DNA from: Cyanobium sp.
GTDB lineage: Bacteria; Cyanobacteriota; Cyanobacteriia; PCC-6307; Cyanobiaceae
Assembly (NCBI GenBank): GCA_044233545.1
Contig: JBIIJV010000001.1
Location: forward strand, 3,263-67,262
Direction: 5' to 3'
DNA length: 64,000 nucleotides
How positions within the stretch are numbered: the stretch's first letter is position 1; every line of letters begins with the position of its first letter. Below are positions 5,227 through 51,668 of the stretch, piece after piece. A model generated the notes under the pieces. That model saw only the letters and a program-made list of their open reading frames with translations. It had not been told where the DNA came from and searched no databases. The position numbers were made by a program, and so were the translations under genes.

Positions 5227-5262
5227 TAATTCCGGTGGCCACCTCGCGCCTATTTTTACCGA

Positions 5263-6927
5263 ATGTTTCCCTTGCTGGCCCAGTTGGTGGCGCCGCCTCT
5301 GCAGCCAGGGCCCATTCGCTTGCCGGGGGCCGATCAGCAGCGATCTCTTCCAGTTGCGCCCGCCCCATCCGCCCCATCCGGGCCCCAGGCGCCAGCCCCT
5401 GTCCAGCCAGCCGCGCCTGGCCCCACCGCCAGCCAGCCGCCCCTGCGGGGCTTCAATCCCTACAGCGCCGCTGAGCTGTCGCGGATCCTGGCCGACTGCA
5501 GCAGCAACAGCAACACCAGTCAGGAGGCCCGCCTCAACCTCTGTGCCACGGCCCTGGGTTCCAGGCTGTTCGCCGATGGCTACATCAACAGCCGCGTCAT
5601 CCCCCAGCCAAACCCACCACCCGGTGCACTGGAAGTGGTGCCCGGCAAAATCGAAGCGATTCAGGTCGTCAGCTCCAGCCCACGGCTGCAGCGGCGCCTG
5701 TTGCGGCTGCTGAAGCCCATACAGGGCAGCGTGCTGCACCTACCAACCTTGACGGCCCAGCTCACCCGGATTCAGCAGCTACCCGGCGTCGGCCTGCTCA
5801 AAACAAACCTCAACCGCATCGGTGAGGACTCCAACCGCGCCCAGCTGTTGATCACGGTGGAGCCCGGCCATGACCCCCTGCGGGGTGAACTGGCCCTGCG
5901 CAATGACGGCAACGGCGGCAGCGGCCAGTTTCGGGGCCTGGCCACCTTGGTCAAGGAACGGGCCCTGGTCAACGGCGACACCCTGCTGCTGTTCGGCGAA
6001 ATCAACACCGATTCCAACCCCGAAATCGGCTCCCTCAACGGCTCGCTCAGCTACTCCCTGCCCCTGCTCGATCAGCTCAACCTGACCACCGCCCTCGGGG
6101 TCAGCCGCCGTACCTTGGTGGAGGCGCCACCGCCACTGAACGACCTCAGCTTTCGCCAACTGCAGCTGTTCAGCCAGCTGGAGTACACCCTGCACGAATC
6201 GCTCAGCGATCGCCTGACTGCCTTCGCCGGTTTGAGCGTCAACCGCAACGACGCCTTCCTCAGCGGCGCCAGCATCCCCGCCATCGTCGGGGGTGGGGAT
6301 GCCGGCTGGTTACGCACCGGCTTCGCGCGCATCGGTCTGGCCTACGACCGATCCACGGGCCCCTTGGCCTTTAACGCCAACCTTTATGGCCTGCAGGGCA
6401 TCGGCGCCTGGTCCACCGTCGCCCAACGGCAGGAGCTGCAATTTCTGGGCATCGAGCCGGATCAAGCCCGGGCCCTGGGATCCCAACTCGCCGCCTCCTG
6501 GTGGCTGGCCCCCCGCTGGCAACTCACCCTGCGGGCCGCTGGCCAGTTGGCCTTCAATCCCCTCACCAACCCCATGGGCTTCAGCCTCGGCAGTGACAAT
6601 GGTCTGAGGGGCCTGCCGGGGCAGGTGCTGAGCGGCGACAGTGGTCTGCTAGGCACCATCGACCTGGCCTGGTTGCTGTGGCGGGGTCGCCAGGACGCTC
6701 TCCAGCTGGTGCCGTTCATCGGCAATGGCCAGGTGTGGACCGAGGTGCAGGGCGCCACGATCAGCGATAGCGCTGGAGCCGGTGGCTTGCTGCTGCGCTG
6801 GATCCGGGGCCGGCATGGCGAGTTGGAATTGGGCTGGGTCAGGCAGTTCCAGAGTGGCTCTAGGGCCTACTGGGACCAATGGATCCTCGGCAACGGCTGC
6901 TACACAAAACTGGTATTTCGTTTCTAA
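5263..6927 (+). CDS. ShlB/FhaC/HecB-family outer-membrane transporter (TpsB) with POTRA region
   Basis: 554 aa with a Pro-rich N-terminus. POTRA-like segment (ALEVVPGKIEAIQVV...LTAQLTRIQQLPGV), beta-strand-rich remainder, terminal ...KLVFRF (C-terminal Phe typical of OM barrels). Lies directly downstream of the TpsA-like gene. Confidence 0.85.
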   Translation: MFPLLAQLVAPPLQPGPIRLPGADQQRSLPVAPAPSAPSGPQAPAPVQPAAPGPTASQPPLRGFNPYSAAELSRILADCSSNSNTSQEARLNLCATALGSRLFADGYINSRVIPQPNPPPGALEVVPGKIEAIQVVSSSPRLQRRLLRLLKPIQGSVLHLPTLTAQLTRIQQLPGVGLLKTNLNRIGEDSNRAQLLITVEPGHDPLRGELALRNDGNGGSGQFRGLATLVKERALVNGDTLLLFGEINTDSNPEIGSLNGSLSYSLPLLDQLNLTTALGVSRRTLVEAPPPLNDLSFRQLQLFSQLEYTLHESLSDRLTAFAGLSVNRNDAFLSGASIPAIVGGGDAGWLRTGFARIGLAYDRSTGPLAFNANLYGLQGIGAWSTVAQRQELQFLGIEPDQARALGSQLAASWWLAPRWQLTLRAAGQLAFNPLTNPMGFSLGSDNGLRGLPGQVLSGDSGLLGTIDLAWLLWRGRQDALQLVPFIGNGQVWTEVQGATISDSAGAGGLLLRWIRGRHGELELGWVRQFQSGSRAYWDQWILGNGCYTKLVFRF

Positions 6928-9176
6928 TGGCCCGTTCGTCGCCCGCCACCGGCCCCCATCCAAAAGGGATTCTGCGGCAGGGGATGACTCGGCAAGGGAT
7001 TGTGCGGCAACTGGGTCCATACCTCGCCGCATTTGGTTTGTTGCTGCTGCTGCGCCAGAGCCAACTCAGTGAACAGCTCAACCTGCTCGCCTACGACCTG
7101 GCGGTGCAGCTCCGGCCCCTGCCCTCCGGGGCCTCCACCCGCGTGCGCATCATCGGCATCGACGAGGACGATCTCAAGCGCTATGGACCGATGGTGTCTG
7201 ATGGGCTACTCGCCGATGCGATCGAACGGCTGGATCGGATCGGCGTGCGGGCCATCGGGCTGGATCTGTTCTGCGGTCAGCCGGTCGGTGCCGGCGGGGC
7301 ACGGCTGCGCCGGCTGGCCGCCAGTAACCCCCGCTTGGTGTCCGCCTACTTCGATCTTGATGGCAAGCGGGCGATCCCCGGCACTCCGCCCCATCGCCAG
7401 GGCTATGCCGATCTCTACACCGATCCGCAGGATGGGCTGGTGCGCCGTGATCTGCTGCACGTCGTCGGCATAGATCAAGCCAGCAAAGCCTCCCTGCCGA
7501 TGCGCTTGCTGCAGATCGCCAAGGGGCAGAGGCAGCTGCCATACAAGTTGAAGCAACAGCCACAGCTGGCGGACCTGGGCGAGGGGGCGGGGGGGTACCT
7601 GCCGGAGAGCCCTGTCACTGATGACAACTATCTGCAGCGCATGCTCGCTTTCCACCAGCCGGGCAGCTTCCCCCAATGGAGCCTGGGCCGCTTGCTGCGC
7701 AACCAGCTAAGCCCGCAGCAGATCCAGCAACTGCGCGGCAGCATCGTGCTGATCGGCGTGGTGGCCCCCTCCAGCAAGGACAGTTTCCCGGTGCCCTTCA
7801 GCAGGGGCCGGGCGGGCGATCAGCGCTTTGAAATCCCCGGCGTCGAAATTCACGCCCACCGGCTTGCCGCCCTGTTGGCGCTGGAGCGCGGCCAGCCCTT
7901 GGGAATTCAGGCCGCGTCGGGCTCGGTGAATCGCTGGCTGCTGCTGCTCGCCCTCGCGGTTGGCATCGTCGCCGGCGAACGGGTGCCAGGGCTGCGGCGC
8001 AGTCTCTGGGTGGTGGCATCGGGCCTTGTGCTGGCGGTGGCGGCGACTGCGGCTTTGCTGGCGCTGGGGGTGTGGCTGGATGCGGCCCTGCCCTTGGCGG
8101 CCTTCAGCCTGATGGCGGCCGCGGCTTGGTTGCGCCGCGGTGCCAACCAGCAAATCAAGGGAAAGGTATTGGAGCTCCAGAACAGGCATGTGCGCAGCCA
8201 GTTCGATCGGTTTGTTTCCAAAGCCGTGGCCGGTGAATTGTTGGACAACAGCCAGGCCAGCCAGACTAGCCAGGCAGCCAGTGAGCTTCGCACTGTCACC
8301 GTATTGATGAGCGACCTGCGGGGCTTCAGCCTGCTGGGACAGGACAACCCTCCGGCCCTGATTGTGCAGCTACTTAATAATTATCTCGATGAGATGTTTC
8401 AAGTCATCGAGCATTATGGCGGCACGATTGACGAAGTCTTAGGGGATGCCATCCTCGTGCTCTTCGGCGCGCCCCTGGTACGTGCTGACCATGCCGAGGC
8501 CGCCATCGCCTGCGCCCTGGCCATGCAGATCGCCATGGAAAAGGTGAATCAAATCAATGTCCAACAGGGGCTGCCAGCGCTGGAGATGGGAATTGGCTTG
8601 TGCACGGGTGACGTGATCGCCGGCACGATCGGCTCCAGGCAGCGGGCCAAGTACGGCGTGGTGGGACCAGCTGTGAACCTGGCCGCCCGCATTGAATCCC
8701 TGAGCGTGGGCGGCGAGGTGCTGGCGGCGGAATCAACGGTTCGGGCCACGGCCGTGCCGCTGCGCATCGATGCCGATCACACTGTGGCGGTGAAGGGATC
8801 CCAAGAGCTCCTGCGGGTCCTCACGATCGGGGCCATCCAGGGCAGGCACAACCTCGCCTTGCCCCTCATCAGCTCACAGCCCCAGGTTCTGCTACAGCCC
8901 CTGGCAGTTCGATACCTCATCTTGAAGGGCAAACAGCGGCAAGGTTCAGCGCAGCCCGCCGTTGTCACCCACCTGAGCGAACGGGAAGCCTGGATCGTGT
9001 TTGAGGGAGACCAACCCGAACTGTTCGACGACCTGGTGCTGATTTTTCCAGCCAGCAGCAGCAGCGGTGAGGTGTACGGCAAGGTGCGGGAGCAGCTCAG
9101 TGGCCATTGGCGCATGGTCTTCAGCTTGATGCCGTCTGGGATTAAGGAGCAGATTGGTATGCGGGGGGCGGCGTGA
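6927..9176 (+). CDS. CHASE2 sensor domain - transmembrane - class III adenylate/guanylate cyclase, with an unassigned ~110-aa C-terminal extension
   Basis: ATG at 6927 overlaps the ShlB stop (TAATG). The ORF track starts at 6879. CHASE2-like N-terminal half (VRIIGIDEDDL..., IVLIGVVAPSSKDSF), a hydrophobic block (LLLLALAVGIVAG...), and cyclase motifs (VTVLMSDLRGFS, YGGTIDEVLGDAILVLFGAP, GLCTGDVIAGTIGS). Confidence 0.85.
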   Translation: MARSSPATGPHPKGILRQGMTRQGIVRQLGPYLAAFGLLLLLRQSQLSEQLNLLAYDLAVQLRPLPSGASTRVRIIGIDEDDLKRYGPMVSDGLLADAIERLDRIGVRAIGLDLFCGQPVGAGGARLRRLAASNPRLVSAYFDLDGKRAIPGTPPHRQGYADLYTDPQDGLVRRDLLHVVGIDQASKASLPMRLLQIAKGQRQLPYKLKQQPQLADLGEGAGGYLPESPVTDDNYLQRMLAFHQPGSFPQWSLGRLLRNQLSPQQIQQLRGSIVLIGVVAPSSKDSFPVPFSRGRAGDQRFEIPGVEIHAHRLAALLALERGQPLGIQAASGSVNRWLLLLALAVGIVAGERVPGLRRSLWVVASGLVLAVAATAALLALGVWLDAALPLAAFSLMAAAAWLRRGANQQIKGKVLELQNRHVRSQFDRFVSKAVAGELLDNSQASQTSQAASELRTVTVLMSDLRGFSLLGQDNPPALIVQLLNNYLDEMFQVIEHYGGTIDEVLGDAILVLFGAPLVRADHAEAAIACALAMQIAMEKVNQINVQQGLPALEMGIGLCTGDVIAGTIGSRQRAKYGVVGPAVNLAARIESLSVGGEVLAAESTVRATAVPLRIDADHTVAVKGSQELLRVLTIGAIQGRHNLALPLISSQPQVLLQPLAVRYLILKGKQRQGSAQPAVVTHLSEREAWIVFEGDQPELFDDLVLIFPASSSSGEVYGKVREQLSGHWRMVFSLMPSGIKEQIGMRGAA

Positions 9177-13121: not shown

Positions 13122-14330
13122 ATGCCCGTTCCCCCCTTCAGCCTCGAAGAGCAGCTGAGGCAGCTCGGCGACAGCCTTGATGAGGCTGTTTTGCAGGTGC
13201 TGCGCAGTGGCCAGTACATCGGCGGGGGCGTGGTCAACGCCTTCGAGACCAGCTTCGCTGCGGCCTGCGCCGTCCCCCACGCCATCGGCTGCAACAGCGG
13301 CACCGATGCCCTCACCCTGGCCCTGCGGGCCCTGGAGATCGGCCCGGGAGACGAGGTGATCACCTCCTCCTTCAGCTTTTTCGCCACCGCCGAGGCGATC
13401 AGCGCCGTCGGGGCCACGCCGGTGTTTGTGGACGTGGATCCGGCCAGCTATCTGCTCGATCTCGATCGCATTGAGGCGGCCGTCACCCCCGCCACCCGCG
13501 CCTTACTGCCGGTCCATCTCTTTGGCCGGCCGGTGGACATGGAACGCATCAACGCCATCGCCCTGCGCCATGGCCTGCGGGTGATCGAAGATTGCGCCCA
13601 AGCCACAGGCGCTAGCTGGGCCGGGCGCCCGGTGGGTAGCTGGGGGGATGCCGGCTGCTTCAGCTTTTTCCCCACCAAGAACCTGGGGGCCGCCGGTGAT
13701 GGCGGGGCCGTAGTCTGCCGCGACAGCAGCCTGGCCCAACGCATCCGGGAGCTGGCGGTGCATGGCATGCCGCGCCGTTATCTCCATACCGACCTGGGTT
13801 ACAACAGCCGCCTTGATGCCATGCAGGCGGCTGTCCTCAACGTCAAGTTGCCCCACCTGCCCCTGTGGGTGGAACGGCGCCGCCGCATCGCCCAGCGCTA
13901 CCGGGAAGCCCTCGGCGACCTCCCCAATCTCCAGCTTGCCGATGCGGGCCCAGACGGCCATAGCTGGAACCAATTCGTAGTGCGGGTGCCGGGTTGTCCC
14001 GCGGATCAGGCCCGCTGTGCTGGTCGCTGCACCCCCTCCAACGACAGTGCCAGCTTCGGCCTGCCGGAAGCCTGTTGCCGCGATTGGCTCAAGCAGCAGC
14101 TTCAGGAAGAAGGGGTGATCACGATCATTTACTACCCGATCCCGATCCATCGCCAGCCGGCCTACGCCGAGCTGGGCTACGGACCCGGCAGCCTGCCGGT
14201 CACCGAGCGCCTCTGCGTCGAAGTCCTCAGCCTGCCGATCTTCCCCGAACTGGGCGACGAGCAACAGGAGCGGGTTATTTGCACCCTGCGCCAGCTAGTG
14301 GGTACCGGGTCGCCGGTGTTGGCGGCCTGA
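13122..14330 (+). CDS. DegT/DnrJ/EryC1/StrS-family PLP aminotransferase
   Basis: Family-typical blocks: GQYIGGG..V..FE..FA, GCNSGTDALTLAL, EVITSSFSFFATAEAI, FFPTKNLGAAGDGG. Confidence 0.9.
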   Translation: MPVPPFSLEEQLRQLGDSLDEAVLQVLRSGQYIGGGVVNAFETSFAAACAVPHAIGCNSGTDALTLALRALEIGPGDEVITSSFSFFATAEAISAVGATPVFVDVDPASYLLDLDRIEAAVTPATRALLPVHLFGRPVDMERINAIALRHGLRVIEDCAQATGASWAGRPVGSWGDAGCFSFFPTKNLGAAGDGGAVVCRDSSLAQRIRELAVHGMPRRYLHTDLGYNSRLDAMQAAVLNVKLPHLPLWVERRRRIAQRYREALGDLPNLQLADAGPDGHSWNQFVVRVPGCPADQARCAGRCTPSNDSASFGLPEACCRDWLKQQLQEEGVITIIYYPIPIHRQPAYAELGYGPGSLPVTERLCVEVLSLPIFPELGDEQQERVICTLRQLVGTGSPVLAA

Positions 14331-14340: not shown

Positions 14341-15537
14341 ATGGCGTTGATCGCCCGCCTGCAGGACCTGGCACCCACCATGGCGGCCTGGCGTCGGGAC
14401 CTGCACGCCCATCCCGAAACGGCCTTCGCAGAACACCGCACCGCCGCCCTGGTGGCTGAGCGGCTCGCCAGCTTTGGCTGTGAGGTGCACACCGGCCTTG
14501 CCGGCACCGGCGTGGTCGGAGTGCTGAGGGCCGGCACCAGCCAGGCCGGCACCGGCAGGGCCGGCAGTTCGGCGCGCAGCATCGGCCTGCGGGCCGACAT
14601 GGATGCCCTGCCGATCACCGAGGCCAACACCTTTGCCCATGGCTCCCGCCACCCGGGTCGCATGCACGCCTGCGGCCACGACGGCCACACCACCATGCTG
14701 CTGGGGGCCGCCCAGTACCTGGCCGAAAGCCGACGTTTTGACGGCACCGTGGTGCTGATCTTCCAGCCGGCCGAAGAAAACGAGGGCGGCGGCCGGGTGA
14801 TGGTGCAGGAGGGCCTGTTCGAGCGTTTCCCGGTGCAGGCGGTCTACGGCTTGCACAACTGGCCCGGCCTGGCGGAGGGGCGTTTTGCCGTGCGCCCAGG
14901 GCCGATGATGGCGGGCTGCGACCAGTTTGAAATCGAACTGAGCGGCCGCGGTTGCCATGCCGCCATGGCCGAGGAGGGCATCGATCCGATCGTGGCCGGC
15001 AGTGCCCTGGTGCAGGCCCTGCAAACGATCACCAGCCGCAACATCGCCGCCGCGGATGCAGCGGTAGTGAGTGTCACCCAGTTCCATGGCGGCGAAGCCT
15101 GGAATGTGATTCCGGCCAGCGTGGTATTGCGCGGCAGCCTGCGCTATTTCCGCGATGAGGTGCGGCACACCATCCATGAGCGCCTGCAGAGCCTGTGCGC
15201 GGGCGTGGCGGCCGCCCATGGCGCCCAGGCCGAACTGCGGCTGATTCCCGGCTATCCCCCCACCGTCAACAGCGCCGCCGAAGCGGCTACCGCCGCCGCC
15301 GCCATGGCTGCCGTTGTCGGCGCCGATCGGGTCGACACCCACCTCCCCCCCACCATGGGCGCCGAAGATTTCGCCTACATGCTGCAGGCCCGTCCGGGGG
15401 CCTACGGCTGGATCGGCAATGGCTCGGGCACGGGCGGCTGCCTGCTGCACAATCCCCGCTACGACTTCAATGACGCCTTACTGGCCATCGGAGCCAGCTA
15501 TTGGGCCACCTTGGTAGAGCGGGTATTGGCCCCCTAA
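14341..15537 (+). CDS. M20D-family amidohydrolase (hippurate hydrolase / N-acyl-amino acid amidohydrolase-like)
   Basis: RRDLHAHPE, LRADMDALP, HACGHDGHT, FQPAEE. Contains a repeat-encoded loop insertion (see findings). Confidence 0.9.
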   Translation: MALIARLQDLAPTMAAWRRDLHAHPETAFAEHRTAALVAERLASFGCEVHTGLAGTGVVGVLRAGTSQAGTGRAGSSARSIGLRADMDALPITEANTFAHGSRHPGRMHACGHDGHTTMLLGAAQYLAESRRFDGTVVLIFQPAEENEGGGRVMVQEGLFERFPVQAVYGLHNWPGLAEGRFAVRPGPMMAGCDQFEIELSGRGCHAAMAEEGIDPIVAGSALVQALQTITSRNIAAADAAVVSVTQFHGGEAWNVIPASVVLRGSLRYFRDEVRHTIHERLQSLCAGVAAAHGAQAELRLIPGYPPTVNSAAEAATAAAAMAAVVGADRVDTHLPPTMGAEDFAYMLQARPGAYGWIGNGSGTGGCLLHNPRYDFNDALLAIGASYWATLVERVLAP

Positions 15538-15589
15538 ACCGGCACGCCTGAACCAGCCCACTGAAGCGGCACACCCAAACCAGCGGGGT

Positions 15590-16948
15590 TCAGGAGCCCA
15601 GCAGAGCCGTGCAAACCAACCTCTCCTGCAAGGCATCCCCCCGCACCCGTCGCAACCGGATCACTTCGGCCAAGTGGCCGGCATCATCGGCGATGCCGCA
15701 GAAGCGGCCCGAGCCCCAGGTGTGCAGCCAGGGCAGTCCTAGAAAATAGAGCCCCGGGCTGGGGGTGACGCCACGCTCGTGGGCGGGATAGCCCGCGCCA
15801 TCGAAGACCGGCACGTCAACCCAGCTGAAATCGCTGCTGTAGCCAGTACACCAAATCACAGCCGCCAGGGGTTCGGCCGCCAGGTTGAGGGCTGGGGCAG
15901 GGCCCGGCAGCGGACGCCAGCAGGGTTCATAGGGATCCTGGGGGGGCACGTCGAGGCCCTGATCGCTGATCCAGAGATCGATGCTCTGGCCGATGCGGTT
16001 GAAAACTGCATCGGCTTGGTCCAGGTTCGCCTCCAGGTCGTCGGCGAACTGGATTCCTTGATCGCCTAGCTCCAGCAGGCGCCCATGCAGTTGCATGCCA
16101 TTGAGGGCATGGCGGCGCAGGTCGATGTCGTGGCCGCCATCCCGTCCGCTGAGGTAGTGGTTGGTCTTGGACCGCACTGCCTTGGGATCGGCATGTTCGT
16201 GGATCGGCATGGCGTAATAGCCCATGCGCTCCAACCAATCGACCACGTCCCTGCCGCGGTAGCGGCGGGGCGAACGCGGCGCCGAACCGACGCTGAGATG
16301 GACGCGGCGACCAGCAAAAAAGAGGTCTTCGGCAATCTGGGCGCCAGATTGGCCACTGCCAACCACCAGCACCGACCCCCCAGGCAACTGGTCGGGGTTG
16401 CGATAGTCGCGGGCATCGAGCTGCAGCACGCTGGCGGGCAGGCGCTGGGCCTGGGGATGGCGTTTGGGGTGGTGATAGCCACCGATCGCCACCACCACTT
16501 GGTCGGCCTGCACCTGGCCGGCACTGGTGCTGAGGCGATAACCCTCCCCCTGGCGCTGCAATCCTTGGACACTGACCCCCTCACGCACATCAACATCCAG
16601 GTGGGCGGCAAAGCGGCGCACGTAGTCGACGATGGCGTCGCGCACCATGAAACCCTCCGGGTCGTCGCCGTCGTAGGGGAAATCGGGCAACCGGCACTGC
16701 CAGTTGGGTGTCACCAGGCAGAAGCTGTCCCAGCGCTGGTGCTGCCAGGCATGGCCGATGCGGTTCTTCTCCAGCACCAGGGCCTGGATGCCATGGCGCT
16801 TCAGGCAGGCCGCCATGGCCAGGCCCGCTTGACCGGCGCCGATGATGACCACCGGTGATGAGGACGGCAGCGGCGGGACTGCTGGGGCGACTGTTGCCGC
16901 CTGGGCGGGAGCAGCGGCGGGAAATGGGGGTGTCGCCGCTGGGGGCAC
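15590..16948 (-). CDS. Flavin-dependent oxidoreductase, MSMEG_0569-like (Nit1C cluster member)
   Basis: [17 protein letters not shown] dinucleotide motif and a second [13 protein letters not shown] motif. Divergent from the nitrilase operon. Confidence 0.85.
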
Positions 16949-17106
16949 AGCGAATCGGCCAAAGGAATAAAAGAATTCTGATGTGAGAATGGCTAAATTC
17001 CGGTAGCCATAGCCACCAAATTAATCGGACTGGTTGCAATCGCTACACAAACTTAGGGGATGGCCGTCCAATCTTCCCCAGTTCTGCGCCCCTGGCCCTG
17101 CTCCCC

Positions 17107-17589
17107 ATGCCTGAAGTGACCCGTCCCGCCAATCAGCCGGGAGATTTTCTTGTTGATTACGAGCAAAAAGTCTTCCCAGATGTCAAAGCGGAACCTGGCG
17201 AAAAAGCCCTGGTCACATTCCACACCGTTGCCTTTGAAGGTTCGATTGGTTTGGTTAACTTACTCCAAGCCAGTCGCCTGATTAATAAAGGTTTTGAAAC
17301 CTCGATTCTTCTCTATGGGCCTGGGGTCACTTTGGGGGTGCAGCGCGGTTTCCCCAAGTTGGGTGATGCCGCCTTTGACGGCCATCTCAACTTCAACGCC
17401 CGCCTGCAAAAATTCATGGACCAGGGTGGCAATGTCTATGCCTGCCGTTTTGCCCTCCAGGCCCTCTACGGCCATGGTGAAGGGGCCTTGATTCCCGGCA
17501 TCACCCCGGTCAACCCCCTGGATGTGCTCGACATTATTTTGTTGCATCGCAAGGAAGGGGCCTTTATTCTGGACACCTGGACCCTCTAA
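17107..17589 (+). CDS. MSMEG_0572/Sll0783-family nitrogen-starvation response protein
   Basis: 160 aa. First gene of the nitrilase operon, in the same order as sll0783-sll0787 of Synechocystis. Confidence 0.75.
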
Positions 17590-17670
17590 ATCCAGCACAA
17601 TTCAATGGCGGGTTGAGCCCTACCTCACCTGTACTCCTTCTCCTTACCCCGCAGCCTGACTCGCCAGCCC

Positions 17671-18775
<1,105 letters not shown>

Positions 18776-18783
<8 letters not shown>

Positions 18784-19882
18784 CACTGAGCCCCGCTTGG
18801 CAACCCTGCTTACCGAATTGCAAGTCCATGGCGTGGTCGATCCGGCCGTGCCTGGCAACCAGGGACGCCGGGGGGGAGCCGGTCCCTCCGACCACCGGGC
18901 CCTGACGATCGACGGCACCACCGTGATGGTGCCGGTTTACAACGCCCGTTCTCAGGCGTCGCCCTACCAGCTGCACAGCGAGGCCGACGGCTCCTTAAGC
19001 CTGGCCCAAGGGGATTCCCCCGTGCTGGCCCAGGTCCAGGTCCCGCCCGAACCAGCTTTTTATGGCCTAGAGACTGCAGAGGGCATCCCATACCGCGCCA
19101 TCGCCCTGCTGCACAGCCGCGATGTGCTGGCCACCACCCTGCAGCAAACCTGCATTCGTTTTCGCGACCGCAGCCAATCGTGCCAGTTCTGTGCCATCGA
19201 GCAATCCCTGGAGGGGGGGCGCACGCTGGTGCGCAAAACACCCCAGCAGGTGGCCGAAGTGGCGGAAGCGGCGGTGCGGCTTGATGGCGTGCGCCAACTG
19301 GTGATGACCACCGGCACCCCCAACAGCGACGACCGCGGCGCCCGGCTGATGGCCGAAACGGCCCTGGCCGTCAAGGCGCGGGTGGATCTGCCGATCCAGG
19401 GCCAGTGCGAGCCGCCGGAGGACTCCAACTGGTATCGGTGGATGAAAGACGCGGGTGTGGACAGCCTCGGCATGCACCTTGAGGTGGTGGAGTCAGAGGT
19501 GCGGCGCCGCATCCTGCCGGGCAAATCGGAACTCAGCCTCGATCGCTATTACGAAGCCTTTGACCAGGCGGTGGCGGTGTTTGGCCGCGGCCAGGTGACC
19601 ACTTACCTGCTGGCGGGCTTGGGCGACAGCGCCGAGAGCCTGATTCGTTGTAGCGAACAGCTCATTCAGCTGGGGGTTTATCCCTTCGTGGTGCCTTTTG
19701 TGCCCATTGCTGGCACACCACTGCAAGACCACCCAGCCCCTAGCACCGCCTTCATGGTCGAGGTGTATGGGGCCGTGGCGGCCCTGCTGCGGGACGCCGA
19801 CCTGCGGGCGGAGGCGATGGCGGCGGGCTGCGCCAAATGCGGGGCCTGCTCGGCCCTGGCTTTGTTTGAACAGGAGGCCTGA
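18776..19882 (+). CDS. Radical SAM protein, MSMEG_0568-like
   Basis: Cys triad C126-X9-C136-X2-C139 (CIRFRDRSQSCQFC) plus a C-terminal CAKCGAC. Position in the cluster matches sll0785. Confidence 0.8.
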
Positions 19883-19884
19883 CC

Positions 19885-20517
19885 ATGCCCTTCCTGGACG
19901 GCAGCAGCCTCAAGATCGGCGCCAGTCCCTGTTCAGCACCGGCGGCCTTCACCCCTTCGGTGCACTTGGGCATCGGCGTCGATGCGGAAGATTTTCGACT
20001 CTCGCCGACGACCCATTCCGGCCTTTTCTCCTTCCACCTGTTACAAACCACTTCCCCGCTGATGAAGGGCTACTGGCAACTGCGCAGCACCATCTTCTGC
20101 CAGGAGCAGCACCTCTTCGAAGAGCACGACCGCGATGACCGGGATGATCACGCCTACCCAATCGCCGCCATCTATCCCGGCGCCGCCCAGTCCTTCGGGG
20201 TGGTGGGTGTGGTGCGAATCCTTGAGGAGAAAGCGGGGCTCTGGTACGGCGGGCGGTTGGGGGTGAAGGACAGCTACCGCCGTCAGAACCAGATCGGCAA
20301 GGGGCTGATCTGGAAGGCCGTGACGACGGCCCACGGCTGGGGCGCCCAGCGCTTCCTGGCGACGGTGCAGCTCCAGAACGTGCGTTTTTTCGAGCGCTTG
20401 CACTGGCACTCGCTGGAGTCCATGGACATCCGCGGCGTCCGCCACCATCTGATGGAGGCCGATCTGGCCTATTACGAACCTGCAAGCCAACGGCGCCCCG
20501 GCCTGATGGCGGCATGA
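19885..20517 (+). CDS. GNAT N-acetyltransferase, MSMEG_0567/Sll0786-like
   Basis: 210 aa. GNAT-like RRQNQIGKGL (Q/R-x-x-G-x-G/A) segment. Cluster position as sll0786. Confidence 0.75.
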   Translation: MPFLDGSSLKIGASPCSAPAAFTPSVHLGIGVDAEDFRLSPTTHSGLFSFHLLQTTSPLMKGYWQLRSTIFCQEQHLFEEHDRDDRDDHAYPIAAIYPGAAQSFGVVGVVRILEEKAGLWYGGRLGVKDSYRRQNQIGKGLIWKAVTTAHGWGAQRFLATVQLQNVRFFERLHWHSLESMDIRGVRHHLMEADLAYYEPASQRRPGLMAA

Positions 20518-21575
20518 GGTCCCATGCAGACGGCCTGGAAGGCGAGGCCAGCGGCGGGGTGCTCCAGAACCAAAGGGGCCGAAGCAGGGCTGAGGTCGAT
20601 TTGGACGGCTTGGTACAGCGATTGTCCCAACTGGAAGGATTGCTGGGCAAGCGTGACATCCAGGTTCCGGCAAGCCTCTTTGCCCACCAACCCTTCCCTT
20701 CGCTGGGGGCGGCGGCGGCTCTGGGGGATGACGCCGCCTTGGTGCCGGCAGCCCCGGGCCCCCTGTTGCTGGCCTGCGAAGGCTTGCACCCCCAGCTGGT
20801 GGCCGAGGACCCCTGGTTCGCCGGCTGGAGTGCCGTGCTGGTGAACCTCAACGACATCGCCGCCATGGGGGGGCGGCCCCTGGCCCTGGTCAACAGCCTC
20901 TGGAGCCAGGGGCCGGAACCGGCTCAGGCGTTGCTGGAGGGTATGGGCTTTGCCTGCGACAAATTCGGGGTACCGATGGTGGGGGGCCATACCAACCTGC
21001 AGAGCCCATACACGGCCCTCTCGGTGGCGGTGCTGGGCATGGCACCGGGGCCTGTGCTCTCGGCCCGGCTGGCGCGGCCGGGGCAGATCTGCTGTCTGCT
21101 GGCAAACCACCAAGGCGCTTTCCATCGCCACTATCCCTTCTGGGATGCGGCGACCCAAGCCGATCCCCCGCGCCTGCGGGCCCAGCTTGAGCTGCTGGTG
21201 CAACTGGCCGGTGCGGGGGTGGTGCGGGCCGCCAAGGACGTGAGCATGGGCGGCATCGCCGGAACGGCGGTGATGTTGGCGGAGGCGGCCGGGTGCCATT
21301 TGCAGCTCGACCTGGACGCCATCGAATCGCCTCCGGGGGTGGCGTTGGAAGCCTGGCTGACCTGTTTCCCCAGCTTTAGCTACTTGCTGGTGGTCGACCC
21401 AGGCGCCAGCGCCGATCTGGCGGCCGCCGTGGCGCCCCACCCCGAGCTGTGGTGCGGGCCCATCGGCCGCTTCGGGCCAGGCCCGGCGTCAGTGGCGTTG
21501 ATCCAGGCCGGGGCCTGCTCGCTGCTGTGGCCAGGGGGGGAAGCCTTGACGGGCTTTACCGCTTCAACCAGATGA
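20514..21575 (+). CDS. AIR-synthase-related protein, Sll0787-like
   Basis: PurM/ThiL-like motifs: GDDAALV, NDIAAMGGRPLAL, VPMVGGHTN, DVSMGGIAGT. 4-nt overlap with the GNAT gene. Confidence 0.85.
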   Translation: MRSHADGLEGEASGGVLQNQRGRSRAEVDLDGLVQRLSQLEGLLGKRDIQVPASLFAHQPFPSLGAAAALGDDAALVPAAPGPLLLACEGLHPQLVAEDPWFAGWSAVLVNLNDIAAMGGRPLALVNSLWSQGPEPAQALLEGMGFACDKFGVPMVGGHTNLQSPYTALSVAVLGMAPGPVLSARLARPGQICCLLANHQGAFHRHYPFWDAATQADPPRLRAQLELLVQLAGAGVVRAAKDVSMGGIAGTAVMLAEAAGCHLQLDLDAIESPPGVALEAWLTCFPSFSYLLVVDPGASADLAAAVAPHPELWCGPIGRFGPGPASVALIQAGACSLLWPGGEALTGFTASTR

Positions 21576-21671
21576 CTTTTCGACTTCAGCTAAATGACAT
21601 GGTCGCATCATCGAATTGACAGCTTGCCTGGGGCCGTCAGGGCAGAATCAGTTAACTGCTGAGGGACATTC

Positions 21672-21944
21672 ATGCCTGAAGTTCATCTCACCCTGGAATG
21701 GCCGGATGGCAGCACCAGTGCTCTTTATTCCCCTTCGACAGTGATCCTGCAGCGGCTGCGACCCGGCCAAAGCCTGCCGATATCCACCCTCAGAACCCAG
21801 GGAATTGCCGCCCTCCAGGAGGCCTCCGAGCGGGTGCGGGCCCGTTACGGCTTTGCCTGCACCCGAACCAATGAAGAACGGCACAAGTTGGAACGTATGG
21901 CCAGCCGTTTTGATGACGCGGAATGCGTCCAGATCTTGTCTTGA
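21672..21944 (+). CDS. MSMEG_0570-like small protein (Nit1C accessory)
   Basis: 90-aa ORF immediately downstream of the operon. Size and position fit. The motif-level match is from memory only. Confidence 0.55.
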   Translation: MPEVHLTLEWPDGSTSALYSPSTVILQRLRPGQSLPISTLRTQGIAALQEASERVRARYGFACTRTNEERHKLERMASRFDDAECVQILS

Positions 21945-22114
21945 AAGGGTTCTCGCAGCCCCTGGCTTAGCCCTAAGTCAGGCGTGGGTCGGAGCGAAAT
22001 CGGCAAGAACTGTTATGACTAGGTAGTTTTCTGCAAATAATAATAGTGCATTTTTGGTTTAAGTTCTAGGCATTTTATCAATCCGCACTTTCTGTCGTCT
22101 GGGACAGTTTAATC

Positions 22115-22993
22115 ATGGTAGAAATTCACACCCTTGCTTGCCTCGATTATCTGATGTGGCTCCGCACAGGCGATGAAGTTGCCAAGCGGACAGGCCTCAA
22201 CCAGTCCACAATCAGTCGCAACCTTCATAAATGCTGTGAAGCCTTTTTCTTAAATGTAAAAAAAATAAATAACGAGTATGTGATCACGGGTAATACCGAC
22301 CTTATCAATCTAGAGCGAAACGTTCACCAGCATCATCGCTGGAAAAGCTATCGCCCATTGAGAGTTGATGCAATGTTCTGGTCAGGGCGAGCCTACTTTT
22401 CGTCACCGATCGAAGACTATGTCTTGGGCAACCATGACTTCATGCATGTCGCCCAACCCCTCGCCATGCTCCGCGATGGCGTACTTGATGCTTTGATTGC
22501 GCCCTTCCCGGATTGTCCGGCTGCCGATGACAGCACATTAGCCAGCTTTCCCCTGGCCTACTTCCCCTGCTATCTGATCACGGTTGAATCCCATCCACTC
22601 TTTTCAATAAACCGTGAATTAACTTTAGAGGACATAGCAGCATACCCCTCCCTTGCCCTGCCAGAGGGGGCTTTCCCAGTTTTTGAAGACTATGCAAAAA
22701 GTCTGGGGCTATGGAATTCACCCTCAAGTATCTATCGCTATGACATGAATAAATGGGAGGGCAGAAACGAAGCTGAGCTAACAACTTCTTTTGCCTCTAT
22801 TTTTGGCGCTAATTTACATAATTCAACTCAAAAGGTATTGCCCTACAAGCTGGATATGGAGTGCGGTGATTATCTGATCGTCAAAAGAGATTTTGCCAAC
22901 CATCCCCTTTGCCAAAATTTGAGGCAGATTCTCCACGATCGCTTAAGGCCATGGGCTGAGCAATATCCTGAAATTCGCTTATGTCACTCTTAA
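22115..22993 (+). CDS. LysR-like transcriptional regulator (HTH + substrate-binding-like C-terminus)
   Basis: N-terminal HTH-like EVAKRTGLNQSTISRNLHKC. 292 aa. The gene and its flanks are markedly AT-richer than their neighbours. Confidence 0.5.
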   Translation: MVEIHTLACLDYLMWLRTGDEVAKRTGLNQSTISRNLHKCCEAFFLNVKKINNEYVITGNTDLINLERNVHQHHRWKSYRPLRVDAMFWSGRAYFSSPIEDYVLGNHDFMHVAQPLAMLRDGVLDALIAPFPDCPAADDSTLASFPLAYFPCYLITVESHPLFSINRELTLEDIAAYPSLALPEGAFPVFEDYAKSLGLWNSPSSIYRYDMNKWEGRNEAELTTSFASIFGANLHNSTQKVLPYKLDMECGDYLIVKRDFANHPLCQNLRQILHDRLRPWAEQYPEIRLCHS

Positions 22994-23090: not shown

Positions 23091-24455
23091 GTGTTGATCA
23101 AAGCCTGCCAGCATCGTGTTCTCCATTCCTGTGCTGCGATGCCTGCCGAAGATTTGATCTGGCGCCGCAGTTGGTACCCGGTGGCCTTCCTCAAGGATCT
23201 GCCGCAGGACCGTCCCACTGCCTTCACCTTGCTGGCCGAGGATTTGGTTCTCTGGCACGACCGCCAGGCCGGGCATTGGCGGGCCTTCGCCGATGTCTGC
23301 CCCCACCGGCTCGTGCCCCTCTCCCAGGGGCGCCTCAACGACAAGGGCGAGCTGGAGTGCCCTTACCACGGCTGGTGCTTTGACGGTGAGGGGCGCTGCA
23401 CCACCATCCCCCAGGCCAATCCCGGCGCCAGCATCGACACCCTGCGCAGCCGTTGCCGGTCCTACGCCACCGCCGCGGCCCAAGGGTTGCTGTTTGTGTT
23501 CAGCGGTGATCCCGCCGCGGCCGAAGCCGTGCCCCTGCCCCTGGTGCCGGTGCTCCAAGAAAACCCGGCCGCTTGGACCGTCCAGGATTCCTTCCGTGAT
23601 TTGCCCTACGACGCCCTCACCCTGCTGGAGAACGTGCTCGATGTGAGCCATGTGCCATTTACCCATCACGCCACTGTGGGCAAGCGTGAGACTGCCGGTC
23701 CGGTGGACCTTGAACTCACCGCCAGTGGATCGGAGGGGTTCAGGGGCCTGTGGCAGGAAGGGCCCCGCCGCGGCAGTCTTGGCAGCCAGACCACAGTGTT
23801 CACGGGCCCCAGCCTGATGATCCATGACCTCACCACCAAGGGGGGCACCCGTTTCCAGACGGTGGTCTACGCCACCCCGATCCACAGAGGGGCCTGCCGG
23901 CTATTTGTGCGGTTGCCCTTTTTCTTCGGCTCTCCCTGGCCAGGTCGGTTGCTGAAACTGCGGCCCGAGTGGTTGCAACACCTCGGTAACCACGTGGTGC
24001 TCGAAGACGACCAGCTATTCCTGCATTGGCAAGAGCGGGTGCTGGAGGAGAGGGGCGGCGGCTCCTCCCTCGCCCAGGCCTGCTACTTGGCCACCCGCTC
24101 CGATCTCTACGTCCGTGCCCTGCACGATTGGGTGGATCGGGTGGGCGGCGGCCCATTCCCCCAGACGCCCCTGCCGGAGCGGCTTGGCGTCCAACCCCTG
24201 CTGGAGCGTTATGAGAGCCACACCCGCCACTGCCGCAGCTGCAGCTCGGTCGATCGGCGCTTGGCGCTGCTGCGGCCTGGCGCTCTAGTGGCGACGGCCC
24301 TAGCCCTGGTGGCCGCCGCTTGGTGGGGGCCCACCCCTGCCGGGGCCGCCTGGCTGGCTTTGGCCTTGGTGGCCGCCGGGGCCTGGATCCAGGCCGGCCG
24401 TTGGCGCCAGGCTCTGCGATTTGGCTCACCCCTACCGCCCCGCAACCGCAGCTAG
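23091..24455 (+). CDS. Rieske [2Fe-2S] oxygenase of the pheophorbide a oxygenase (PAO/Tic55) type, with C-terminal TM helices
   Basis: CPHRLVPLSQG...CPYHGWCF Rieske motif. Mononuclear-iron region NVLDVSHVPFTHH. C-terminal CRSC and hydrophobic helices. The likely true start is the ATG at 23139 (MPAEDLIWRRSWYPV). Confidence 0.85.
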   Translation: MLIKACQHRVLHSCAAMPAEDLIWRRSWYPVAFLKDLPQDRPTAFTLLAEDLVLWHDRQAGHWRAFADVCPHRLVPLSQGRLNDKGELECPYHGWCFDGEGRCTTIPQANPGASIDTLRSRCRSYATAAAQGLLFVFSGDPAAAEAVPLPLVPVLQENPAAWTVQDSFRDLPYDALTLLENVLDVSHVPFTHHATVGKRETAGPVDLELTASGSEGFRGLWQEGPRRGSLGSQTTVFTGPSLMIHDLTTKGGTRFQTVVYATPIHRGACRLFVRLPFFFGSPWPGRLLKLRPEWLQHLGNHVVLEDDQLFLHWQERVLEERGGGSSLAQACYLATRSDLYVRALHDWVDRVGGGPFPQTPLPERLGVQPLLERYESHTRHCRSCSSVDRRLALLRPGALVATALALVAAAWWGPTPAGAAWLALALVAAGAWIQAGRWRQALRFGSPLPPRNRS

Positions 24456-25002: not shown

Positions 25003-25983
25003 GTGCCCATGGTTTCCGCCCCTGCATCGCCCAGCATCGGTGTGGGCACCTGGGCCTGGGGCAACCAGCTGCTCTGGGGCTACGACCCCGCCCAGGACGA
25101 GGCCCTACGCCAGTGCTTCCACCGGGCCGTGGCCTTGGGGCTGCACTTTTTTGACACAGCCGATTCCTATGGAACCGGGCGTTTCAACGGCCGCAGCGAG
25201 ACCCTGCTCGGCCAGTTCTGCTCGGAGCTGGCCCTGGCCGATCGCCAGGCCCTCACGCTGGCCACCAAGCTGGCCCCTTTCCCCTGGCGCCTGGGCCGCC
25301 AGGGCTTTCGTTCCGCCTTCGCGGCCTCCCACCAGCGACTCAAAGGTCACCTCGATCTGGTGCAACTGCACTGGAGCACGGCCCGTTATGCCCCCTGGCA
25401 GGAGGGCCCCCTGCTGGATGGGTTGGTGGATCGGCAGCTAGCGGGAGAGGTTGCTGCTGTTGGGGTTTCCAACCTGGGTCCCGCCCGCCTGCGCCAGGTC
25501 CATCGCCATATGCAAGAGCGCGGAGTGGCTCTGCACAGCCTCCAGGTGCAGTTGTCCTTGTTGGCCCCCCAGCCAGTCCAGCCAGGGGGGCTGGCAGACA
25601 TCTGCCAGGAGCTGGGGGTCCAATTGATCGCTTACAGCCCCCTCGCCCTTGGACTCTTAACCCAGCCCGCCGGGGATCCCCCGCCCTGGCCCCCAGGGCC
25701 CCGGGGCTTGCTTTATCGGCGGCTTTGGAACGGTTGCCAGCCCTTGTTGGCGGCCTTGGGCAGCATCGCTGGCGACCGCGGTGTCTCCCAGGCGGCCGTT
25801 GCCCTTAATTGGTGCCGGGCCCATGGCGCCATGCCCATCGTTGGCCTGCGTCGCATTGAACAGGTGGATGGGGCCGCAGCGGCTCTCGCCTGGCAACTGG
25901 GTGCCGATGAACGCAAGCTGCTTGACGCCACCAGTGCATCCCTGGCGGTGGCGATGCCGGCGAACCCATTCCAGAGCCGCTGA
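25003..25983 (+). CDS. Aldo/keto reductase
   Basis: GVGTWAWG, FFDTADSYG, LDLVQLHW, IAYSPLALGLL. Confidence 0.9.
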   Translation: MPMVSAPASPSIGVGTWAWGNQLLWGYDPAQDEALRQCFHRAVALGLHFFDTADSYGTGRFNGRSETLLGQFCSELALADRQALTLATKLAPFPWRLGRQGFRSAFAASHQRLKGHLDLVQLHWSTARYAPWQEGPLLDGLVDRQLAGEVAAVGVSNLGPARLRQVHRHMQERGVALHSLQVQLSLLAPQPVQPGGLADICQELGVQLIAYSPLALGLLTQPAGDPPPWPPGPRGLLYRRLWNGCQPLLAALGSIAGDRGVSQAAVALNWCRAHGAMPIVGLRRIEQVDGAAAALAWQLGADERKLLDATSASLAVAMPANPFQSR

Positions 25984-26831: not shown

Positions 26832-27866
26832 TCAGTACGGCAATCCCGCCAACGCCCCCTGGGGGGCAGCCCCGGCGGCGATTCGGCCCATCTCCCAGGC
26901 CCCGAAACCGCTCGCCTGGCAGACCCCCAAAGCGTTTTCGACGGCATCGGGCGGCACCACCAGGCAGAACCCCACCCCCAGATTGAAAGTGTTCCACAGG
27001 TCGGCCTCGGGCACCTGACCCCAGTGCTGCAACCAGTCAAAGAGCGCCGGCCGCGTCCAGCTGTCCGGATCAATCACCCCGTGGACCCCCGCCGGCAGGG
27101 CCCGGGGCAGGTTTTCCGGCAGCCCTCCGCCAGTGATGTGGGCCATGCCGTGCAGGGGCACGTTTTGCCGTTGCAGCGCCTTCACCAACGGCGCATAAAT
27201 CAGGGTTGGCGATAGCAGTGACGCGATCAGGGATGGCCCGTTGGCTTCGATGGGTTCGTGGAGGGGGTGGCCGCTGGCCGCAAGAATCTTGCGCACCAGG
27301 CTGAAACCGTTGCTGTGGATGCCGCTGCTGGCCACCGCCACGATCCGATCGCCGACGCCCACGGCCTGGCCATCAATCAGTTGCTCCTCCTCGACCACCC
27401 CCACACAGAAGCCGGCCAGGTCGTAGCGCCCTTGGGGATAGAAGCCCGGCATCTCGGCGGTTTCACCCCCCAATAGGGCGCAGCCCCCCGTTGCGCAGCC
27501 GGCGGCAATCCCCTCCACCACCTCGGCCATAGCCTCGGCGCTGAGGCGGCCAGTGGCGATGTAATCCAGAAAAAACAGGGGCTCGGCGCCGCTGGTGATC
27601 ACATCGTTTACGCACATCGCCACCAGATCAATCCCTACCCCCCGGTGGGCGCCATGGTCCTGGGCCAGTTCCAGTTTGGTGCCGACTCCGTCGGTGCCGG
27701 CCACCAGCAAGGGTTGCCGCAGACCCCCCGGCAGGCGGCAGAGGCCTGCGAACCCCCCCAGAGCGCCCCGCACCTCGGGCCTGTGGGTGCTTTCCACACT
27801 GCGGCGGATGCGTTCCACGAAGGCCCGCCCTGCCACCACATCGACACCGGAGTCGCGGTAATCCAT
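26832..27866 (-). CDS. purM: Phosphoribosylformylglycinamidine cyclo-ligase (AIR synthetase)
   Basis: [17 protein letters not shown]..., [26 protein letters not shown]. The ORF track offers an upstream ATG at 27923. Confidence 0.9.
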
Positions 27867-28206
27867 CGCCGTGCTGCCGGAACTGGCTCCGATCCTCCGA
27901 TGGCGGCGACCCTGGACCGCCATCCAGCTTCCTTGGATGGGGACGATTCCGTGATTGGCACATTTAATGATTCGCCTGGCTAATGCCTTTGATCAGATTT
28001 TCTGATCTTCGTTTTAGGTGTCAGGGGTGCTGTTGTCAGTCGTGGCCAAAGGACGGGCGACGGATGATGAAATCTGATCAATCAATTTGGGCGACTTTCT
28101 CATTTTTTTGGCCCACAAAGTTCAGATACCTTGGGCTCGTTGTTATTCCTGTAAGGAACTCCCCAGGTAACTTCGCCAAACTAGATCACCTGAAAAGGGT
28201 TCTATT

Positions 28207-41979: not shown

Positions 41980-42312
41980 TTAGGTCCGCTTGCTCCGGGA
42001 GGGTGGCCTGGTCGTGCGCTGGTTTACGCGCTTAGTCTCTTTGGGTTGACCAGGTTCCGACCGATTAGCGTCAGGGGTGGGCAGTGCTTCGACATTCTGC
42101 TGCGCTGAAGCTGGCTGGGGCGTAGCACCGACATCAGCTCGGGCCTTCATCAGGCCAGTCACATCGGCAACCCTCATTCCCTGGTGATGAAGCCCATGCA
42201 TCACGACACTCAGGGTTTGCAGTGGCACTCGAATGGTTCTGCAGGCGACGTGCCCACCTTTCAAGGATCCGACCACGCTCACGTAAAATATCTTATTCAC
42301 CATGCTGTCCAT
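41980..42312 (-). CDS. Small CpcD-like-domain protein with a basic, Pro-rich C-terminal tail
   Basis: From ATG 42312/42303: NKIFYVSVVGSLKGGHVACRTIRVPLQTLSVVMHGLHHQGMRVADVTGL fits the CpcD-domain pattern (F.V.V.G...VP...L...M..L...G..I..V). It is followed by ~55 aa rich in P/R/K/Q/T. Confidence 0.5.
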   Translation of the reverse strand: MDSMVNKIFYVSVVGSLKGGHVACRTIRVPLQTLSVVMHGLHHQGMRVADVTGLMKARADVGATPQPASAQQNVEALPTPDANRSEPGQPKETKRVNQRTTRPPSRSKRT

Positions 42313-42440
42313 GCTTACTTGTCTATGATACTTGGATTGTCGCTCAAGGGCATTGGGCTCGCCGATCGCTACACATTCTGACACCTGCCATGGGCTGCCT
42401 TGATCGGTTGTGCATGGGATAATGATCAATGTAATCAAGG

Positions 42441-44081: not shown

Positions 44082-44086
44082 CTTAC

Positions 44087-44707: not shown

Positions 44708-44710
44708 TGC

Positions 44711-46257: not shown

Positions 46258-46317
46258 TGAGAAATCAGCAAAGGGAGAAACGAGTGTTGCGATAAGAGCA
46301 GCGAGAATAGTTTGGTC

Positions 46318-47844: not shown

Positions 47845-47946
47845 AAGATGTCTCGGAGGTGGGAGAGGGGGGTGTTGGCTTGGCGGAGGAACATGTCTCC
47901 AAACAGGTTTGATTGTTCTTAGTGTCGATCAGCAATCATTAAATAG

Positions 47947-51664: not shown

Positions 51665-51668
51665 GGGA

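Follow-up and report, generated by a model that had tools for sequence, protein, structure and literature searches.

An intact Nit1C gene cluster with predicted divergent NtcA-type promoters in a freshwater Cyanobium-type picocyanobacterium

Introduction

Nit1C is a conserved cluster of seven genes that includes a nitrilase gene, and one copy of it lies in the stretch of DNA analysed here, 64,000 nucleotides (nt) of a Cyanobium sp. contig (JBIIJV010000001.1, positions 3,263 to 67,262). We call this whole stretch the window and give all coordinates as positions in it. The cluster was defined in 2005, with Synechococcus sp. WH8102 included and with a flavoprotein gene on the opposite strand at its start (Podar, PMC1199592). 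A seven-gene nitrilase cluster is widespread in Synechococcus (Doré et al., PMC7522525; PMC10119275), and the cluster is present in the Antarctic Synechococcus-like Ca. Regnicoccus frigidus (Panwar et al., PMC9716671).

In Synechocystis the cluster is induced by nitrogen starvation and linked to polyhydroxybutyrate (PHB) (PMC3901256; PMC5714215), and the PHB defect of an sll0783 mutant is linked to NADPH (PMC3901256). The homologous genes of Mycobacterium smegmatis are upregulated more than 500-fold via GlnR under nitrogen starvation, and the gpr cluster that they form raises NADPH/NADP and confers resistance to peroxide (PMC6039565). In Pseudomonas, where the sigma-54 regulator NitA is encoded beside the cluster, the link is to cyanide (PMC7815647; PMC11049912), nitC being essential for cyanide assimilation (PMC7815647). 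According to these papers the cluster is under nitrogen master control in three phyla, through NtcA in cyanobacteria, GlnR in mycobacteria and a sigma-54 activator in Pseudomonas. The purified enzymes Nit11764 and Nit6803 are true nitrilases that act best on vinylic nitriles; cyanide is poorly accepted as a substrate, and the physiological role has been called unclear (Jones et al. 2021, PMC7815647). Our literature search found no paper that resolves the substrate or the product of Nit1C. This background, including the result of the search for a product, agrees with that given in an earlier note on this DNA, which named the response to nitrogen starvation in Synechocystis, the connection with PHB and the role of cyanide in Pseudomonas.

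Results

The seven genes and their layout

Families were assigned with NCBIfam models and their curated cut-offs, one Nit1C-specific model per gene, and Pfam was used as a second check. The seven genes (lengths in amino acids, aa) are the following.

15590-16948, minus strand: nitH, 452 aa, TIGR04046 with 641 bits (cut-off 498), model positions 2-400 of 400
17107-17589, plus strand: nitB, 160 aa, TIGR04044 with 275 bits (cut-off 110)
17671-18783, plus strand: nitC, 370 aa, TIGR04048 with 541 bits (cut-off 502.6)
18776-19882, plus strand: nitD, 368 aa, TIGR04043 with 570 bits (cut-off 304)
19885-20517, plus strand: nitE, 210 aa, TIGR04045 with 212 bits (cut-off 68)
20514-21575, plus strand: nitF, 353 aa, TIGR04049 with 390 bits (cut-off 321)
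21672-21944, plus strand: nitG, 90 aa, TIGR04042 with 104 bits (cut-off 80)

Every gene covers its NCBIfam model almost completely, and none of the seven open reading frames (ORFs) contains an internal stop. Pfam agrees at the superfamily level (CN_hydrolase, Radical_SAM, Acetyltransf_1, AIRS/AIRS_C and Pyr_redox_3). The components by which Nit1C was defined in 2005, a Nit6803-family nitrilase and six co-located partner families, are all present. The earlier note had read the locus as a complete Nit1C or sll0783-type cluster and had proposed that each family be checked with its hidden Markov model; this check was run, all seven models scored above their cut-offs, and no inactivating change was found in any gene. 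The locus is therefore an intact, ordinary copy of the known seven-gene Nit1C cluster.

The genes follow the cyanobacterial Nit1C arrangement, with nitH divergent at the start and nitBCDEFG on one strand. nitC and nitD overlap by 8 nt, nitD and nitE are separated by 2 nt, and nitE and nitF overlap by 4 nt, so that nitC, nitD, nitE and nitF are tightly coupled. The earlier note had described these junctions correctly but had left two larger spacers unmentioned: nitC begins 81 nt after nitB, and nitG 96 nt after nitF. When positions 15300-22300 were scanned for terminators and sigma-70 consensus promoters, neither was more frequent than expected from shuffles, which leaves an attenuator in either of these spacers without support. 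No RNA family was found in or near the cluster by the Rfam scan.

Distribution and comparison with described systems

One genome per GTDB species was scanned for relatives of the cluster; of the 224 obtained, the best 80 (L001-L080) were kept. Nearly all of the best 80 loci come from Cyanobium- or Synechococcus-type genomes or metagenome-assembled genomes (MAGs), and all 80 show the layout of nitH on the minus strand and nitBCDEFG on the plus strand as far as their contigs extend. The window's NitD shares 93-95% identity with that of freshwater Cyanobium MAGs (L001-L008). Synteny on both sides of the cluster is retained in the closest relatives (L004 and L005), and the flanks otherwise vary. 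The expectation that a full copy would be notable in a picocyanobacterium with a streamlined genome was not borne out in either part. Such a copy is established knowledge because the WH8102, Synechococcus and Regnicoccus cases had already been published, and the 224 relatives point the same way; moreover, the source looks to be a freshwater Cyanobium, a lineage that is not notably streamlined.

The picocyanobacterial Nit1C known from WH8102 and from Doré 2023 (Syn-eCAG_002 and Pro-eCAG_006) comprises the same seven families, arranged in identical order and with a divergent flavoprotein gene at its start. The contig of Ca. Regnicoccus frigidus MAG-AL1, which is L027 of our set, carries the seven genes in the same layout, its NitD being ~78-79% identical. 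The copy in the window differs from those of other picocyanobacteria in belonging to a freshwater Cyanobium-like lineage, with a NitD 95% identical to that of lake MAGs. Its flanks differ as well: upstream it has genes for an M20 amidohydrolase and a DegT aminotransferase, and downstream a LysR-like ORF and a gene for a Rieske oxygenase, as opposed to DUF3050, GH57 and NTF2 in MAG-AL1.

The same seven structural families make up the nitABCDEFGH clusters of Pseudomonas (P. oleovorans/pseudoalcaligenes CECT 5344 as well as P. fluorescens NCIMB 11764). There, too, NitB is the most conserved protein, with more than 90% identity within the genus (PMC11049912), and control is nitrogen-linked. In Pseudomonas, however, nitH stands last on the same strand and the sigma-54 activator gene nitA is attached, whereas here nitH is divergent, nitA is absent and NtcA control is predicted (see below). 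The M. smegmatis gpr cluster, MSMEG_0565-0572, consists of homologous families, the NCBIfam models being named after the MSMEG genes, and is induced by the nitrogen master regulator. It differs in having eight ORFs, a GNAT protein fused to the AIR-synthase-like protein (MSMEG_0567), control by GlnR and a reported resistance to peroxide.

The GC content of the window varies between 0.45 and 0.71. For five of the cluster genes (0.64-0.69) the description of a backbone-like GC content stands; it does not for nitB (0.53, with 0.60 at third codon positions, GC3) and nitG (0.59). The GC3 of the cluster genes other than nitB is ~0.78-0.82. nitB has a lower GC3 than nitC in 72 of 73 related loci, although NitB is the most conserved protein. 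We considered a recent horizontal import as the reason for the low GC content of nitB and rejected it, since a low GC3 in 72 of 73 loci is a property of the clade and not the mark of a recent import.

The divergent nitH and nitB promoters

The spacer between nitH and nitB comprises 158 bp (16949-17106). It was aligned with those of the related loci, and 200 shuffles served as control. The following elements are predicted in it.

16975-16980, minus strand: predicted -10 hexamer of the nitH promoter, CAGAAT, 22 nt from box 1
17003-17016, no strand assigned: NtcA-type box 1, GTAGCCATAGCCAC (GTA-N8-CAC), placed to activate nitH
17033-17046, no strand assigned: NtcA-type box 2, GTTGCAATCGCTAC (GTT-N8-TAC), 74 nt upstream of the nitB ATG, placed to activate nitBCDEF
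17069-17074, plus strand: predicted -10 hexamer of the nitB promoter, CAATCT, 22 nt after box 2

Box 1, searched as GTA-N9-AC, is found at the matching position in 70 of 70 related loci, compared with a mean of 4.5 and a maximum of 12 in the shuffles. Across the loci it occurs as 48 distinct 14-mers, and the flanking sequence is not conserved. Box 2, searched as GT-N10-AC, is likewise present in all 70 loci (shuffle mean 8.2, maximum 15), and a GT-N10-AC motif lies at -65 to -89 in 73 of 73 loci with the family consensus ttcGGTgGCAtcGGCGACA. The putative -10 hexamers recur together with the boxes: at a constant distance from box 1, positions A2 and T6 of the nitH hexamer show 80% conservation or more over 71 aligned regions, and an nAnnnT hexamer recurs in the aligned loci 22-23 nt past box 2. 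Apart from these nitrogen-regulator boxes no other conserved site shared across the clade was seen in the picocyanobacterial promoters.

NtcA recognises the consensus GTAN8TAC centred at -41.5 (Giner-Lamia et al., PMC5714215). From the conserved arrangement we predict two divergent promoters of the NtcA-activated type (class II) in the nitH-nitB spacer, conserved across picocyanobacteria; transcription of nitB is predicted to start at ~17081, which would give a 5' untranslated region of ~25 nt. In Synechocystis, chromatin immunoprecipitation sequencing placed two NtcA peaks, which overlap, in the bidirectional promoter of sll0783 and slr0821, and sll0783 belongs to the NtcA regulon (PMC5714215); NtcA thus binds the bidirectional promoter there, whereas the boxes described here are predictions from sequence. 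A conserved transcription-factor site at Nit1C had not been found in 2005 (Podar, PMC1199592). Earlier publications already cover this type of cluster, the layout it has in cyanobacteria and its occurrence in picocyanobacteria; new here are the conserved NtcA-type promoter architecture and the descriptive observations on NitB and NitG given below.

A third box of this type, GT-N10-AC, lies between nitF and nitG in 42 of 68 relatives, against a shuffle mean of 3.2. A -10 hexamer such as CACAAT stands 22-23 nt behind it, and this arrangement suggests that nitG has a promoter of its own in those relatives. The spacer in the window (21576-21671) lacks the box, as do those of its closest relatives; it contains TTGACA (21616-21621) and, after 21 nt, CAGAAT (21643-21648).

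Two repeats overlap box 1: TGGCTA-N8-TAGCCA (16990-17009), which is inverted and perfect, and TAGCCA TAGCCA (17004-17015), which is a tandem repeat. They occur only in the closest relatives of the window (L004, L005 and L007) and could be the site of a second regulator or a matter of chance.

The enzymes

NitC is ~66% identical to Nit6803 (PDB 3WUY; E = 1.5e-136). The motifs of the catalytic Glu-Lys-Cys triad of branch-1 nitrilases, fpETf, krrKitpt and laCWEh, align and are identical to those of Nit6803; in the homologue Nit11764 the triad is numbered E44/K126/C160 (PMC7815647). Beyond the family model NitC continues in a tail of ~68 aa (residues ~303-370; 18580-18783) that is of low complexity, rich in Pro, Ala and Ser, and overlaps the start of nitD. 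The tail is longer than that of Nit6803. In other nitrilases, C-terminal tails affect filament formation.

NitD belongs to the MSMEG_0568 family of radical SAM proteins (NF045502 variant_rSAM, 186 bits; Pfam Radical_SAM, 46.8 bits). It also matches LipS2 and PylB more weakly, and its sequence places it nearest to the biotin-synthase/PylB/LipS2 group. The canonical CxxxCxxC motif is absent from NitD, which has C-x9-C-x2-C instead (CIRFRDRSQSCQFC). As this arrangement is kept in 80 of 80 loci and the protein matches the variant_rSAM model, we regard it as the trait of a variant-motif subfamily and not as the sign of a broken gene. A C-terminal motif, CAKCGAC, is kept in 79 of 79 loci and probably binds a second cluster. 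A sequence search of the PDB with NitD found no real relatives.

NitH is a flavin-dependent oxidoreductase of the MSMEG_0569 family with two GxGxxG motifs for dinucleotide binding, GAGQAG and GSGQSG. Its Pfam matches are Pyr_redox_3, Lys_Orn_oxgnase and FMO-like, and by sequence it looks like a class-B flavoprotein monooxygenase. The GTG start of nitH adds an N-terminal extension of 31 aa rich in Pro and Ala, and for this reason the true start is uncertain.

NitE is a GNAT acyltransferase of the MSMEG_0567/Sll0786 family and is also matched by Pfam Acetyltransf_1. NitF is the AIR-synthase-like protein of the sll0787 family, an ATP-utilising member of the PurM superfamily (Pfam AIRS and AIRS_C); methanogenesis marker 2 is its next best model (193 bits), and ThiL, PurL, SelD and HypE are its sequence relatives in the PDB. 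That NitF might be the housekeeping PurM was ruled out, as the true purM is a separate gene at 26832-27923 on the minus strand. The family names MSMEG_0567_GNAT and MSMEG_0567_Cter imply that NitE and NitF are fused in mycobacteria.

The small proteins NitB and NitG

NitB is a member of the MSMEG_0572/Sll0783 family, for which 2750 homologues were found in a large protein collection; among the matches listed the length is nearly always exactly 160 aa. It is 79-85% identical to proteins from alphaproteobacteria, myxobacteria and Synechocystis (81% to Sll0783). In the picocyanobacterial loci NitB is conserved far more strongly than the accompanying enzymes, as seen from the median identities to the window proteins: 94% for NitB, 83% for NitC, 79% for NitD, 71% for NitH, 68% for NitE, 62% for NitF and 60% for NitG.

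An AlphaFold2 model of NitB was obtained with a mean confidence (pLDDT) of 70.6. Its top six Foldseek matches are all DsrE/DsrF-like (3pnx with two chains, 3mc3, 1l1s, 2qs7 and 2hy5_B), with a probability of 1.0 and TM-scores of 0.50-0.56, and the predicted fold of NitB is thus DsrE/YchN-like. A YchN-like fold had already been assigned to this protein, as ORF1, in 2005 (Podar, PMC1199592). The Pfam DsrE model matches NitB with E = 0.039 and 14.6 bits, under its cut-off of 22.7. Neither a PDB sequence search nor a profile search from the NitB alignment found real relatives; matches to DARPin and antibody entries of the PDB were dismissed as weak, repeat-driven or short chance matches. Cys113 of NitB is invariant and is located at a strand-to-helix junction of the predicted model.

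NitG belongs to the MSMEG_0570 family and has an invariant Cys63 in the motif SERVRARYGFACTR. Its AlphaFold2 model is confident (pLDDT 93.6). Foldseek gave no match between this fold and solved structures in the PDB (best E = 0.58), and no real relatives were found by a PDB sequence search. Podar (2005, PMC1199592) likewise found no relatives of ORF6.

The surroundings of the cluster

Upstream of the cluster lie a DegT/PseC-like aminotransferase gene (13122-14330) and an M20 amidohydrolase gene (14341-15537), the latter convergent with nitH. Directly after nitG follows a divergent LysR-type ORF (22115-22993, plus strand, 292 aa) in a patch with a GC content of 0.55. It gives a weak LysR_substrate match and a faint helix-turn-helix signal, and none of the NCBIfam models matches it. 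Its conservation is confined to the closest relatives, at 70-100% identity, apart from matches of ~40% identity in L017 and L026. The ORF may encode a regulator of local reach, or it may be an insertion that has nothing to do with the cluster. Further downstream are a Rieske/PaO-type oxygenase gene (23091-24455) and an aldo-keto reductase gene (25003-25983). Beyond the closest relatives, neither these two genes nor the two upstream ones are conserved beside Nit1C. The M20 amidohydrolase, the DegT aminotransferase, the LysR-like ORF and the Rieske oxygenase were considered as members of the cluster and rejected, as no relatives but the closest have them next to it.

The context of the window is cyanobacterial, with genes for phycobilisome rod linkers, a panC-cmk fusion and a cyano-S1 leader. 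The only Rfam matches in it are a tRNA gene (56832-56904, minus strand) and the S1 leader RF03151 (62699-62773, minus strand), which lies upstream of the S1 gene (61589-62692). The region 42000-54000 (GC 0.51-0.55) is probably a phycobilisome rod region; it holds rod-linker genes at 46318-47844 and 47947-48822, a gene for a HEAT-repeat protein (42441-43787) and a ferrochelatase gene (49038-50270). The region 1429-9176 resembles a module of the two-partner-secretion kind whose cargo would be CHAT protease-like. Its 1265-aa protein, encoded in a stretch of low GC content (0.45-0.50), has a weak, sub-threshold match to a two-partner-secretion domain at the N-terminus and a C-terminal CHAT domain; a gene for a ShlB/FhaC-type transporter follows at 5263-6927 and one for a CHASE2-adenylate/guanylate cyclase at 6879-9176.

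Discussion

We favour the view that the locus is a vertically maintained, intact Nit1C cluster of a freshwater Cyanobium-type picocyanobacterium, switched by NtcA and working as a nitrile-hydrolysing nitrogen-scavenging unit, and we give this reading a probability of roughly 0.6. Upon nitrogen limitation 2-oxoglutarate would rise and NtcA would turn on both transcription units. The gene products would then act as one unit, in whose final step NitC would hydrolyse a nitrile and so yield a carboxylate and ammonium. The nitrile might be taken up, might derive from cyanide or might be synthesised in situ by the accessory enzymes, that is, the flavin monooxygenase-like NitH, the biotin-synthase/PylB-like radical SAM protein NitD, the GNAT protein NitE and the ATP-dependent PurM-type protein NitF. 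The DsrE-like NitB and the small NitG would be subunits that serve, through their Cys residues, as carriers or scaffolds. On balance the unit would scavenge nitrogen and detoxify C≡N compounds, and a side effect on the NADPH balance would account for the PHB phenotype of Synechocystis and the peroxide phenotype of M. smegmatis. The PHB phenotype itself may not be transferable to this organism.

HypE, a member of the PurM superfamily, dehydrates a Cys-bound carboxamide to thiocyanate. The kinship of NitF with HypE and the affinities of NitD would be consistent with a common theme of C≡N chemistry, which we offer as a conjecture.

Several points weigh against the favoured reading. Both boxes depart from the strict GTAN8TAC consensus by one position, box 1 ending with CAC and box 2 beginning with GTT. 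The confidence of the NitB model is moderate, and the carrier or scaffold roles proposed for NitB and NitG are conjectural. That the provision of nitrogen is the main role has been doubted by the authors who characterised the nitrilases (PMC7815647). Furthermore, a radical SAM protein, a PurM-type protein, a GNAT protein and two carrier-like proteins are superfluous for simple nitrile hydrolysis, which argues for a more elaborate and possibly biosynthetic pathway.

A biosynthetic pathway is the main rival. Under nitrogen stress the radical SAM, PurM-type, GNAT, flavoprotein and nitrilase enzymes would together make a small metabolite or cofactor with redox activity, which would raise NADPH/NADP, and the release of ammonium would be incidental. 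The enzyme set is akin to those used for tailoring cofactors or natural products, and a biosynthetic metabolon around nitrilase filaments has been raised in the NCBI family description and by Jones et al. (PMC7815647). The effect of gpr on NADPH/NADP and peroxide resistance in M. smegmatis (PMC6039565) and the NADPH-linked defect of the sll0783 mutant (PMC3901256) speak for it; the identity of NitB of 79-85% across phyla suggests a scaffold with several partners, and the mycobacterial fusion of NitE with NitF fits as well. A product made by the cluster has, however, never been detected, genes for a transporter, a carrier protein or precursor supply are absent from the cluster, and the growth of Pseudomonas on cyanide fits catabolism more directly. 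We regard biosynthesis as possible, though rather unlikely.

The cluster could also serve mainly to detoxify cyanide or nitriles released by cyanogenic neighbours, with nitrogen control being secondary. Doré et al. (PMC10119275) explicitly left this open, Panwar et al. (PMC9716671) tied the cluster to cyanide in the oxic zone, and a DsrE-like Cys protein might in principle carry sulfane sulfur. Yet the nitrilase is poor on cyanide (PMC7815647), the inducer in M. smegmatis is nitrogen starvation and neither peroxide nor cyanide (PMC6039565), and the picocyanobacterial promoters bear nitrogen-regulator boxes as the only site seen to be conserved throughout the clade. Detoxification as the main role therefore appears doubtful to us.

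Equally speculative is a protein-tethered C≡N metabolon under NtcA control. In it an intermediate would be carried as a thiol adduct on Cys113 of NitB, and perhaps on Cys63 of NitG; NitF would use ATP to dehydrate or activate this intermediate in the manner of HypE, NitD and NitH would remodel it, and the nitrilase would release ammonium. We consider this scheme improbable, but if true it would represent a previously unrecognised route of nitrogen scavenging in abundant picocyanobacteria.

That the cluster came in by horizontal transfer and is carried along in this genome in a silent or decaying state is highly improbable: the flanks do vary among picocyanobacterial lineages, unrelated neighbourhoods and nearby mobile elements have been seen in other species (Podar, PMC1199592), and nitB and the adjacent LysR-like ORF lie below the surrounding GC content, but the seven ORFs are full-length with conserved motifs and near-complete model coverage, the promoter boxes are conserved, and synteny is kept on both flanks in the closest relatives, L004 and L005.

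This copy offers no new leverage on the function of Nit1C, since better models carry the cluster, namely Synechocystis, Pseudomonas, M. smegmatis and Synechococcus WH8102. What the analysis adds as by-products is a concrete model of two divergent NtcA-type promoters, with a third before nitG in many relatives, the conservation of NitB and a NitG fold without a solved relative. As picocyanobacteria that dominate ecologically carry Nit1C widely, an answer to the question of its biochemical purpose, which has stood for about 20 years, would matter for nitrogen cycling in both marine and freshwater environments.

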